Source: Escherichia coli (lineage in GTDB: Bacteria > Pseudomonadota > Gammaproteobacteria > Enterobacterales > Enterobacteriaceae). Taken from it: a stretch of 64,000 nt of DNA. Under the pieces are notes generated by a model. That model ran no database searches, was not told the origin of the DNA, and worked only from the letters and a program-made list of their open reading frames with translations. Of the stretch, positions 2,119 through 64,000 are shown in pieces (the stretch's first letter is position 1; each line of letters opens with the position of its first letter). The position numbers were made by a program, and so were the translations under genes. The DNA is taken from the NCBI RefSeq assembly GCF_003334765.1, contig NZ_QOWT01000008.1; one strand, 5' to 3'.

Positions 2119-2735
2119 TAGCGTTGCTCCTGAGTGAGGGAAAGGGGATCCTCCCCGCCATTGGCAAACCAGCTTGCGGCAAGGCGCTGTTTTTCTTTCA
2201 TCTGACGTTGCAGGCTATCACCGGTGATCAGCCGTAACGCCTGATTCGGGCAAGCGCGAACGCAGGCCGGACCTTCTGGCAAGAAATCACACAGGTCGCA
2301 TTTCACCGCGACGGTCTGGACACCAGGTTCCCAGCGCAGCAAAGCATGTTGTGTTGGCGCGTTTTCTTCGCCGTCTTTGAGTGAGCCTTCAGCCTGAAAA
2401 ACATATTGCGCATGGGCATTCACCGGACGGCTTCCTGAAGCGCTGATTGCGCCAAATGGGCAGACCACGGCGCAAAGCTTGCAGCCAATACAGAGGCTTT
2501 CGTTGAGTTGGATCGCATCATCCCTCTGAGAGATGGCATTGACCGGGCAGACCTGCAGGCAAGGGGCTTCCTCACAGTGATGACACACGACAGGGGCAGT
2601 GATTGTTGACGTCTTCGCCAGGGCCAGGCGCGGGTGTTGCTGTAAACCTTGCGTTTTATGCACGTCCGAACAGGCAGCGAGACAGGTATTACATCCTGTA
2701 CACCACAGTGGTTCGGCCACCACAAAGCGGTTCAT
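2118..2735 (-). CDS. hyfA: Hydrogenase-4 component A, 4Fe-4S ferredoxin-type subunit
   Basis: 205 codons from ATG at 2733-2735 (GGAG 7 nt upstream); N-terminus MNRFVVAEP; repeated Cys clusters (CxxCxxCxxxC) typical of 4Fe-4S ferredoxins; ORF track gives a longer 218-aa in-frame ORF from 2774. Confidence 0.85.
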   Translation of the reverse strand: MNRFVVAEPLWCTGCNTCLAACSDVHKTQGLQQHPRLALAKTSTITAPVVCHHCEEAPCLQVCPVNAISQRDDAIQLNESLCIGCKLCAVVCPFGAISASGSRPVNAHAQYVFQAEGSLKDGEENAPTQHALLRWEPGVQTVAVKCDLCDFLPEGPACVRACPNQALRLITGDSLQRQMKEKQRLAASWFANGGEDPLSLTQEQR

Positions 2736-2775
2736 GTCGGCTCCTTGAAAATGATATGAAACATTGCATTTCATA

Positions 2776-2791
2776 TTGCATAAAGGATGCC
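2776..2791 (-). promoter_or_regulatory. Candidate sigma-54 (-24/-12) promoter for hyf operon
   Basis: Reverse strand reads TGGCATCCTTTATGCA, matching TGGCAC-N5-TTGCA spacing (GG and GC 11 nt apart), about 40 bp upstream of the hyfA ATG; hyf is known to be sigma-54 dependent. Confidence 0.45.
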
Positions 2792-2987
2792 ATTCTGATT
2801 AACTCAATATATTCAATAAGTTATGTATTAACTGGATTCTGAACGGTACAAAAATGATGGTCATTAACGTTCAGCAAAAAATGGATTCGACACCCGTGTC
2901 GCAGGGGAAAGCGAGAATGTGATCTTGATCACGAGAAGTGAGGTATGCTGGCCGCAAGCGCAGCCAGCACGGAATGGAGCAAAGTAA

Positions 2988-3458
2988 TCAGGCGTGTTCT
3001 TTCAGCCAGTTCAGCACAACGTCGTGGTGATTGCTGGTTTTGAAATCGTCAAAGACATGTTCGATTTTGCCATCAGCGTCAATCAGGAAGCTGATGCGAT
3101 GAATGCCATCGTAGGTTTTGCCCATGAAGGACTTTTCACCCCAGACGCCGAATTGTTCGCACACCTGGTGGTCCTCATCAGACAGGAGCGTAAAGTTAAG
3201 CAGCTCTTTTTCCGCAAAACGGGAGAGTTTTTCGGGTTTATCGGTGCTGATACCCAGCACATCAACGCCCGCTTTTTTCAACTCATCCATGTTATCGCGT
3301 AAGCCGCAGGCCTGTACGGTACAGCCGGGGGTCATGGCTTTCGGGTAGAAATAAACCAGAACACGCTGTCCCTGGAAGTCGGTCAAATTAACTTGTTCTC
3401 CGTCTTGATCCGGCAAGCTAAATTTCGGTGCGATATCACCGGCTTTCAGTGGATTCAT
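2988..3458 (-). CDS. bcp: Thiol peroxidase / peroxiredoxin Bcp
   Basis: 156-aa reverse ORF, peroxiredoxin active-site context (TPGCT), recognised as Bcp; start overlaps gcvR stop (TAATG). Confidence 0.9.
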   Translation of the reverse strand: MNPLKAGDIAPKFSLPDQDGEQVNLTDFQGQRVLVYFYPKAMTPGCTVQACGLRDNMDELKKAGVDVLGISTDKPEKLSRFAEKELLNFTLLSDEDHQVCEQFGVWGEKSFMGKTYDGIHRISFLIDADGKIEHVFDDFKTSNHHDVVLNWLKEHA

Positions 3459-10864: not shown

Positions 10865-10879
10865 AAGACAGATTACCTG

Positions 10880-10958
10880 GCCTGATAAGACGCGTGAGCG
10901 TCGCATCAGGCATCGTTCACCATTGCCGGATGCGGCGTTAACGCCTTATCCGGCCTAC
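10880..10958. repeat. BIME (two REP elements)
   Basis: GCCTGATAAGACGCGTGAGCGTCGCATCAGGC followed by GCCGGATGCGGCGTTAACGCCTTATCCGGCCTAC between convergent ypfH and ypfN. Confidence 0.65.
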
Positions 10959-16504: not shown

Positions 16505-18205
16505 TTACATTAACTGACTTTCCTCACCCTCCGCAGAGCGAAAGCTAATACTCACTAACGTGCCGCCGCCGGAAGGTTGTGAAAAAGTCAGCGTCCCACC
16601 TAGCCGTTCCGCGCGTTCGCGCATGATATTCAGACCATAATGACCTTCGGGTTCTTTCGGTTCACCGATACCAATCCCGTTATCACGGATATAAACCGTG
16701 TGATTGCCGTCCGGCGCGGTGACGCAACTGACGGCGATTTCGCTGGCGTTGGCGTGCTTCATCGCATTCAGCACCGCTTCGCGAATAATTTGCAACAAAT
16801 GCACCTGCATTTGCGCATCCAGTGCCAGGGTTGGCAGACGGCAGTCGAGGGTCAGTTTGGCGCTGGTTTGATTTTGTAACGTATCCAGCATTTCCCTCAA
16901 TGCGGAGGGGAGATCCGCCTGCTGCAGCGTCAGGCGGAAAGTAGTCAACAGCTCGCGTAACTGCCGATAAGCATCATTCAACGCCTGGGAAAAATCGGCC
17001 ATGATACTTTGTGCGGTGGCGTTATCTTCCGGTATCGAACGCTTCAGTAACGTCAACTGGATACGTAAGTAAGAAAGTACCTGAGCCAGCGAGTCGTGCA
17101 ATTCGCGGGCGATGGTCGCACGTTCTTCCATCAACAATAATTGCTGAAAATGCTTCTGCGCCTGATTAAAGTACAAACCGCGTCCCAGCATCGACGAAAC
17201 GCTGTTAAGCAGCGGTTCTGATGATGAAACGTGACTATTTTGCCAGTGCAGTTCGCCGTAAACCGTCTCTTGCATTGTCACCGGTAAAATCTGCATCGGC
17301 AATTCCGGGTTTGGTTGCCCTTCGCTAATCCGCCAGTTTTCACCGACATTTAACTCCAGATATTCAGCCGCTTCATTGTCGCGAACAATCTGCAAAATAT
17401 GGCGGAAACAATGCACATCAATCTGGCTAGTGTTCAGCGCCTGCGAACACTGATACAACACCTCCAGACGACGCTTGGCCTCGTGGAGATCGCGGGTCTT
17501 TTCTTCTACTGACGCTTCCAGCGAACGGTACAATTTATGCAGCTCGCTCGACATCTGGTTAAAGGTTTTTGCAAGCAGACCAAGCTCATTCGGCAGGTTG
17601 GTATCCAGCGGCGGCGAGTCGAACTGCCCGTGTTCAATACGCTGACTGGCGGTAACCAGCTGATTCAGCGGGGCAACCACCTGATGGCGTATGCGGCGCA
17701 AAGTAAAAAAGACCAGCGTGAAAATACCGATGCCGCCAGCCAGGGAAATCGCCACCACCAGCAGCATTTTGCGTTCAGCGTAGTGCTGTAAAGCCAGTAC
17801 GAACAGGTCTATCTGATTAACATAATTATTAATATTGGCCTGATACCACGGCAAATCGCCCTTGCTGAGCCGATTATTCATCTCCAGCCAGTTGGCATTC
17901 AGATGCGCATAGCGAGTTTTTACTGCTTCTGGCACATACCAGACGTTGAGGTTGGTTAATACCGGTGAATGCAGTGCCTGCTGAAATAACTGGCGATGTG
18001 CATTGAGTTGTGGACTGCCACTTTGCAAGTCGTAGCCCAGGCGGTAACTCTGCATACGCAGCGATCCGGCAATATTGATAGCCTCAGCGTCGCGCAAACT
18101 GCTCGCCAGAGTTAGCAGAGCGATACCCGTGGAAAGAATCGACAGCAGCACAATGTAAAAAAAGGCCCGGGCCAGACTGGCCGAGACGGGTCGTTTAACA
18201 ATCAC
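16505..18205 (-). CDS. narQ: Nitrate/nitrite sensor histidine kinase NarQ
   Basis: 566 codons if initiated at GTG 18203-18205 (MIVKRPVSASLARAFF...); an in-frame ATG at 18220 would add 5 residues; HAMP and HisKA_3/HATPase regions recognisable. Confidence 0.85.
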   Translation of the reverse strand: MIVKRPVSASLARAFFYIVLLSILSTGIALLTLASSLRDAEAINIAGSLRMQSYRLGYDLQSGSPQLNAHRQLFQQALHSPVLTNLNVWYVPEAVKTRYAHLNANWLEMNNRLSKGDLPWYQANINNYVNQIDLFVLALQHYAERKMLLVVAISLAGGIGIFTLVFFTLRRIRHQVVAPLNQLVTASQRIEHGQFDSPPLDTNLPNELGLLAKTFNQMSSELHKLYRSLEASVEEKTRDLHEAKRRLEVLYQCSQALNTSQIDVHCFRHILQIVRDNEAAEYLELNVGENWRISEGQPNPELPMQILPVTMQETVYGELHWQNSHVSSSEPLLNSVSSMLGRGLYFNQAQKHFQQLLLMEERATIARELHDSLAQVLSYLRIQLTLLKRSIPEDNATAQSIMADFSQALNDAYRQLRELLTTFRLTLQQADLPSALREMLDTLQNQTSAKLTLDCRLPTLALDAQMQVHLLQIIREAVLNAMKHANASEIAVSCVTAPDGNHTVYIRDNGIGIGEPKEPEGHYGLNIMRERAERLGGTLTFSQPSGGGTLVSISFRSAEGEESQLM

Positions 18206-35612: not shown

Positions 35613-35797
<185 letters not shown>

Positions 35798-58490: not shown

Positions 58491-58610
<120 letters not shown>

Positions 58611-63744: not shown

Positions 63745-63764
63745 GCATTTTTAACAAGCTGGCA

Positions 63765-64000
63765 TTACTGTTGCAATTCTTTCTCAGTGAAGAGATCGGC
63801 AAACAATGCGGTGCTTAAATAACGCTCACCCGATGATGGTAGAATAACCACAATATTCTTGTTGGTAAAGCTTTCATCTTCTTGTAGTTTCAACGCCGCG
63901 GCAACAGCTGCTCCAGAAGAGATACCTGCAAGAATACCTTCTTCTTCCATCAGACGACGCGCGGTAGAAATCGCTTCTTCATTGGTGATGCCAATGACTT
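63765..64000 (-). CDS. cysK: Cysteine synthase A (O-acetylserine sulfhydrylase A), C-terminal fragment running off the window end
   Basis: Reverse-strand reading frame ending at stop 63765-63767 with C-terminus ...[26 protein letters not shown]; upstream part lies beyond position 64000. Confidence 0.85.

Follow-up and report, generated by a model that had tools for sequence, protein, structure and literature searches.

In Escherichia coli, the FhlA-dependent promoters of fdhF, hydN-hypF, hycA and hypA consist of a -24/-12 element and an activating sequence further upstream, as does that of the hydrogenase-4 (hyfABCDEFGHIJR-focB) operon, and all of them, like hyf, are sigma-54 ChIP-seq sites (PMC4591121). 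What sets the hyf promoter apart from the others is an additional activator, HyfR, together with a CRP-like site. This promoter has been known since work of 2002-2004, which also described its dependence on sigma-54 and its activators; genome-wide studies of 2015 and 2021 confirmed that sigma-54 binds there. In their title, Skibinski et al. 2002 (J Bacteriol 184:6642) identify the sigma-54-dependent activators of the operon as FhlA and HyfR. Regulation of E. coli hyf by FhlA is also stated in PMC7658346, and for the hyf promoter of Proteus the dependence on FhlA and RpoN has been shown experimentally (PMC7658346).

The DNA analyzed here (the window) is a stretch of 64,000 nucleotides of E. coli, in which bcp (2988-3458), a 252-nt spacer (2736-2987), hyfA (2118-2735) and hyfB (100-2118) follow one another on the minus strand. 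Every base of the bcp-hyfA spacer is identical to that of K-12 MG1655 (100% identity), and window positions were converted to those of NC_000913.3 as 2601201 + (2735 - window position). Using megablast, we matched the region with annotated bcp and hyfA in 5425 of 5426 complete E. coli genomes. In about 1128 of the 5426, the match was limited to the bcp end of the query and hyf was missing altogether; homology in these hyf-less strains ends just downstream of the bcp hairpin, with the boundary within 2934-2987. In ATCC 25922, for example, yfgO and bepA come directly after bcp, and the whole hyf operon is absent together with its promoter. The features of the locus are listed in Table 1.

Table 1. 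Features of the bcp-hyfA region on the minus strand, in window coordinates.
Feature	Position	Strand	Basis
hyfA start codon ATG	2733..2735	-	RefSeq NP_416976.4 start, NC_000913.3 position 2601201, maps here
Ribosome-binding region AAGGAGCC, Shine-Dalgarno AGGAG at 2740-2744	2739..2746	-	Sequence; near-invariant in 9-genome alignment
Predicted transcription start region (CAA)	2764..2766	-	ChIP-derived start 2766; A2765 and A2764 invariant in 9-genome alignment
Sigma-54 (RpoN) -24/-12 element TGGCATCCTTTATGCA (16-mer)	2777..2792	-	GG 2791-2790, GC 2779-2778
IHF-like site TAACTTATTGAAT, centre ~-52	2811..2823	-	Conserved block in 9-genome alignment; consensus
Conserved block TGACCATCATTTTTG, centre ~-91	2849..2863	-	14/15 positions invariant in nine genomes
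Candidate FhlA/HyfR upstream activating sequence GCGACACGGGTGTCGA, GCGACA-CGGG-TGTCGA, centre ~-128	2887..2902	-	Conservation
CRP-like palindrome CGTGATCAAGATCACA, centre ~-160	2918..2933	-	One mismatch to TGTGA-N6-TCACA
GC-rich hairpin 3' of bcp stop codon	2945..2970	-	RNA fold; no clear T-run
bcp stop codon TGA	2988-2990	-	

The initial annotation had placed a candidate sigma-54 promoter upstream of hyfA at 2776-2791. The motif and its location on the hyfA strand were confirmed, whereas the coordinates were one base off and should read 2777-2792. Its register is TGGCAT-CCTTT-ATGCA, as compared with the canonical TGGCAC-N5-TTGCW, and the spacing GG-N10-GC is indeed exact. We counted 41 nt between the element and the ATG of hyfA (2735), in line with the distance of about 40 bp given earlier. 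Relative to the strict consensus TGGCACGNNNNTTGCW there are 3 mismatches, namely T for C at -22, C for G at -21 and A for T at -15.

The position weight matrix scan that the initial annotation had suggested as a check was run with an RpoN count matrix from 186 promoters (PMC7658346, Table 2; maximum 21 bits). Judged by its sequence alone, the hyfA motif is not exceptional, because its 12.2 of 21 bits place it 5th among ~128,000 window positions; four other sites in the window score equal to or above it. Seen in its context the motif is exceptional: on the hyfA strand of the spacer it is the sole site with a positive score, the next best reaching -0.9 bits. After dinucleotide shuffling of the spacer, 52 of 5000 sequences (~1%) attained the same score, and the expectation under an i.i.d. 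model is 0.004-0.007. A looser pattern, TGGCAYNNNNNWTGCW, occurs twice in the 64 kb, against 0.52 expected. A further site, AGGCGCGGGTGTTGCT at 2626-2641 (+), antisense inside hyfA, scores 13.0 bits with the same matrix.

The identical sequence has been reported as a binding site of sigma-54. In Table 1 of Bonocora et al. 2015 (PMC4591121), ChIP-seq peak OS23 is assigned to hyfA on the K-12 plus strand with the 17-mer motif ATGGCATCCTTTATGCA; its peak centre is 2599175, its motif centre 2599173 (U00096.2) and its fold-above-threshold (FAT) value 16. The distance from the predicted start to the gene is 31, the start having been set 19 bp from the motif centre, and OS23 is marked C in the EcoCyc column (PMC4591121). 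We read this C as 'experimentally confirmed', because the text of the same paper counts 18 of 20 EcoCyc confirmed promoters and 15 predicted ones in the table. By gSELEX with RpoN, the bcp>hyfA spacer gave a peak of 92% with the holoenzyme alone and the highest peak (100%) in the presence of NtrC (Shimada et al. 2021, PMC8743547). The motif thus has the sequence, strand and mapped coordinates of the known K-12 hyfA promoter, with no difference; a subset of the O157:H7 lineage has GA in place of the GG at -24. The agreement with an established sigma-54 dependence that the initial annotation had noted holds, as far as the title of Skibinski et al. 2002 goes. The promoter is real, and it is no longer a candidate, being established knowledge: the hyfA motif is almost certainly the published sigma-54 promoter of the hydrogenase-4 operon. 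As this check shows, a real sigma-54 promoter could be recognized from the letters of the DNA.

When OS23 was converted to window coordinates, its motif centre fell on 2785, the exact centre of 2793-2777, and its predicted start on 2766. Primer extension reportedly placed the start 30 nt before the hyfA ATG, in a position matching the -24/-12 boxes, and hyf expression is said to have been sigma-54 dependent. Such a start would correspond to window position 2765, and the C in the EcoCyc column lends indirect support to it and to the dependence on rpoN. A transcription start near 2765 had been expected, and both the ChIP-derived position and the invariant A residues at 2765-2764 are consistent with it. 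An in-frame ATG at 2772-2774 (-) precedes the annotated hyfA start by 13 codons, coming shortly after the -12 element, and lengthens the mechanical open reading frame (MKCNVSYHFQGAD...). This ATG cannot be the real start codon of hyfA, because it lies upstream of the predicted transcription start at 2765/2766.

Employing a DNA pattern for the HyfA N-terminus, MNRFV(V/I)A(E/D)P, we scanned a collection of species-representative genomes; the search was blind to the promoter and found 120 loci, of which 61 encode a homologue of HyfB next after one of HyfA. At 47 of these 61, all from other species, a sense-strand RpoN site scoring 11 bits or more was present within 200 nt upstream of hyfA, as compared with 1 antisense and 0 shuffled sites in the controls. 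At least half of the 14 hyfA-hyfB loci without such a site belong to Alphaproteobacteria. Motif and ATG are separated by a median of 45 nt across species and by 41 nt in E. coli. In other hyf (FHL-2) promoters of Enterobacterales and Aeromonas, for example that of Proteus mirabilis, the RpoN site is located 38-90 nt before hyfA, as in E. coli, but most relatives have stronger -24/-12 matches (14-19 bits versus 12.2 in E. coli). The upstream neighbour is bcp only in the group of Escherichia, Citrobacter, Kosakonia and Phytobacter, whereas in other relatives the neighbour differs.

We aligned the E. coli region with those of eight relatives (two Citrobacter, Kosakonia, Phytobacter, two uncultured enterics, Enterobacter sp. 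Bisph1 and Klebsiella indica), of which seven have bcp upstream of hyfA, the exception being Klebsiella indica. The mean column identity of the spacer is 64% in these nine genomes, and invariant columns are clustered in discrete blocks: TGGCA and TT.TGC of the promoter, AA at 2765-2764, the Shine-Dalgarno region and four blocks further upstream. A second enteric group (Pluralibacter, Enterobacter sp. CC120223-11 and Enterobacteriaceae RIT691; loci L030, L051, L068 and L118) differs in the upstream neighbour of hyfA; its -24/-12 element is far stronger (17.6-19.3 bits), and in place of a single palindrome it carries CGTCA/TGACG words in arrays.

The match to the -24/-12 consensus could in principle be due to chance, or could represent an inert sigma-54 binding site like many intragenic ones, with hyf expressed by read-through from bcp. 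Two intragenic sigma-54 ChIP-seq sites lie within this same window, the hairpin downstream of bcp has no T-run, and hyf is reportedly nearly silent in wild-type K-12. The hyfA site, however, is intergenic and correctly oriented, 41 nt from the ATG, it is kept at the same distance across many genera, and it is accompanied at a typical distance by a conserved palindrome of the enhancer type. It is also marked C in the EcoCyc column of Table 1 of PMC4591121. As to read-through, a stable hairpin (-20.9 kcal/mol, z = -4.1; 0 of 200 shuffles folded equally well) stands between bcp and the promoter, and GC-rich inverted repeats were seen by eye at the matching position in relatives; this hairpin is probably the terminator of bcp. 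We consider a chance or inert site highly improbable.

Hexamer counts were taken over the 200 nt that precede the -24 element of the 47 hyf promoters. TCGACA (42/47 regions), CGACAC (35/47) and TCGTCA (34/47) came out on top, against an expectation of ~3.5, and they are arranged as a palindrome, TCGWCA-N4-TGWCGA, between -90 and -170. With at most 1 mismatch, this palindrome was found in 41 of the 47 regions versus 0.002 per shuffled region; its median centre across species, -128, coincides with the centre of the E. coli copy at 2887-2902, which has one mismatch, and other hyf (FHL-2) promoters likewise carry it near -128. In the window there are 2 matches to the pattern against 0.44 expected. 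The same palindrome is present upstream of E. coli hydN (0 mismatches, TCGACACTAGTGACGA) and fdhF (1 mismatch, TCGTCAGTTTTGACGT), both of the type common to hyf. The distance from operator to TGGC is ~95 nt in hyf, as compared with roughly 70 in hydN and fdhF (judged by eye), so that the hyf operator lies further upstream. In the hyc-hyp intergenic region, no copy of the palindrome was found within 2 mismatches, only arrays of CGACA/TGTCG words. A perfect 6+6 palindrome with spacers of 0-6 is expected ~0.4 times per 252 nt by estimate and is not significant by itself, so the case for the operator is made by conservation only. On this basis, the palindrome is most likely the binding site of FhlA/HyfR, and its position agrees with the expectation of the initial annotation that activator sites lie within 2800-2987.

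Scored with a strict matrix built from the operator-block sequences of the eight relatives, the hyf site of E. coli reached no more than 4.2 bits, an effect of over-fitting to eight sequences, and the palindrome pattern was used instead. We also considered fewer operator copies as a cause of the 'silence' of hyf in E. coli and rejected this idea: exactly one copy is present in 36 of the 47 regions, that of E. coli included.

Alternatively, FhlA/HyfR may act at the palindrome GTGATCAAGATCAC (2919-2932), within the CRP-like element, rather than at the CGACAC palindrome. The best match of the spacer to a published 13-site FhlA matrix is TGATCAAGATCACA at 2918-2931, with 9.9 bits versus 5.0 bits for the CGACAC palindrome; all of its GTGATCAAGATCAC bases have non-zero counts in that matrix, and it may even be a training site. 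Against this, the region fits the CRP consensus TGTGA-N6-TCACA with one mismatch, and the bases kept there in relatives are those of the CRP type, TGA...TCACA. The cAMP-CRP dependence that hyf is said to show also speaks for CRP. The unbiased word count in the 47 hyf promoters ranked TCGACA, CGACAC and TCGTCA first, and it is the TCGWCA-N4-TGWCGA palindrome that the E. coli hydN and fdhF regions carry. We thus set TGATCAAGATCACA aside as an activator site and left it to CRP on account of the consensus match, the conservation pattern and the word enrichment; that it should be the FhlA/HyfR site is unlikely, and the CGACAC palindrome remains our preferred operator.

In 7 of the 8 relatives, the CRP-like site is kept in the form T(G/T)TGA-N6-TCACA, its conservation being poor in Klebsiella indica. 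The window contains 4 such sites with at most 1 mismatch, versus 2.0 expected. Conservation and consensus point to CRP, but the assignment is not certain, because the same site is the best match of the 13-site FhlA matrix.

Between the operator and the promoter, the IHF-like site has one mismatch to YAANNNNTTGATW, the reverse complement of WATCAANNNNTTR, and the consensus is matched perfectly at this site in both Citrobacter genomes and in Klebsiella indica. Exact matches to WATCAANNNNTTR occur in the window at chance level (3 versus 2.26 expected), so it is position and conservation that carry the argument. The site sits where the bend is usually located in sigma-54 promoters. From its consensus and its position, it would be a binding site for IHF. 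An IHF-like sequence, AACTTATTGAAT, is exactly common to E. coli and locus L051 of the second enteric group.

The conserved block at ~-91 bears on the question whether hyf is transcribed wholly or partly from an upstream sigma-70 promoter. Such a promoter would consist of ATGACC (2864-2859) and CAGAAT (2841-2836) with a spacing of 17 nt, and the block would represent its -35 region. Shimada et al. 2014 found a gSELEX peak of the RpoD holoenzyme in the bcp>hyfA spacer and proposed exactly this hexamer pair (PMC3946193); a minor-sigma holoenzyme also binds the spacer in vitro, with its peak at the same coordinate as that of RpoD (PMC5493296). The -35-like TGACC is invariant in the nine genomes. 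However, the pair agrees with the consensus at no more than 8 of 12 positions, and no sigma-70-like promoter, the proposed pair included, passed our scan of 2600-3100. The resolution of gSELEX is coarse, and the hexamers had been chosen by best match (PMC3946193). The -10 hexamer CAGAAT is conserved in 0 of 8 relatives (1-2 of 6 matches), and because of this the proposed promoter does not explain the conserved block, which at 15 nt extends well past a -35 hexamer. The operon is also described as sigma-54 dependent, at least in the title of Skibinski et al. 2002. We regard transcription of hyf from this pair as decidedly unlikely; at most, it is a weak, E. coli-specific extra promoter next to the sigma-54 promoter. 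In E. coli, the block is flanked by a 10-nt inverted repeat (2839-2848 / 2865-2874).

Taken as a working model, the control region may operate as follows. Sigma-54 RNA polymerase binds TGGCAT-N5-ATGCA (2792-2777), as has been published, in a closed complex that is unable to open the DNA unaided and needs an enhancer-binding ATPase. This role would most likely fall to the formate-responsive FhlA or its paralogue HyfR on GCGACACGGGTGTCGA, ~128 nt upstream. HyfR, for its part, reportedly binds the hyf promoter region. The DNA would be looped between operator and promoter, probably with the help of IHF near -52, and ATP hydrolysis by the activator would open the promoter for a start at 2765/2766, ~30 nt before the hyfA ATG. 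The CRP-like site near -160 probably adds a dependence on cAMP-CRP.

A natural variant of the -24 element was found in O157:H7 strain Z866, in which the near-invariant GG is changed to GA at window position 2790, giving TGACAT for TGGCAT (TGACATCCTTTATGCA). With this substitution, the site scores 2.8 bits instead of 12.2 with the RpoN matrix. An exact 55-mer with the GA allele is present in 139 of 5426 complete E. coli genomes; among the matches listed were O157:H7 strains including 86-24, TW14588 and 493/89, and GG is kept in O55:H7 RM12579 and in O157:H7 FRIK2069. As predicted from the loss of score, the substitution would disable the promoter, which seems to be knocked out naturally in those members of the O157:H7 lineage that carry GA. 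If so, hyf would be fully silent in them. We advance two ideas tentatively, as possible but rather doubtful: that the block TGACCATCA(Y)TTTTG at ~-91 is the site of a yet-unassigned regulator of hydrogenase-4, and, separately, that the GA allele is a natural knock-out leaving hyf fully silent.

What is added here to the published promoter is a conservation-based map (operator at -128, IHF-like site at -52, CRP-like site at -160 and block at -91) and the O157:H7 allele mutated at -24. Together, the map and the allele could help to explain the poor expression of E. coli hydrogenase-4.

Elsewhere in the window, the best match to the RpoN matrix (15.7 bits) is CTGGCATTACTGTTGCA at 63759-63775 (+); it is identical to IA18, one of the intragenic sigma-54 ChIP-seq sites of Bonocora et al. 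2015 (PMC4591121), which is antisense within cysK. Nearby, Shimada et al. 2021 (PMC8743547) report an RpoN gSELEX peak, attributed to the spacer cysK>ptsH. Similarly, ACGGTACAATTTATGCA at 17525-17541 (+) is the published intragenic site IA19, antisense within narQ (PMC4591121). The sigma-54 motifs of hyfA (2785) and cysK (63767) are 60,982 nt apart here as compared with 67,773 nt in K-12, according to the coordinates of Bonocora et al. 2015. Consequently, ~6.8 kb of K-12 must be missing from the source strain. CPZ-55, a prophage located in the eut region, is of this size. A scan of the whole window with Rfam gave no match in 2700-3000; above the gathering score, it identified naRNA4 (CssrE) at two places, one of them on both strands, and ES036 (CssrF) at one, the three regions being 10879-10955, 35666-35747 and 58534-58576.
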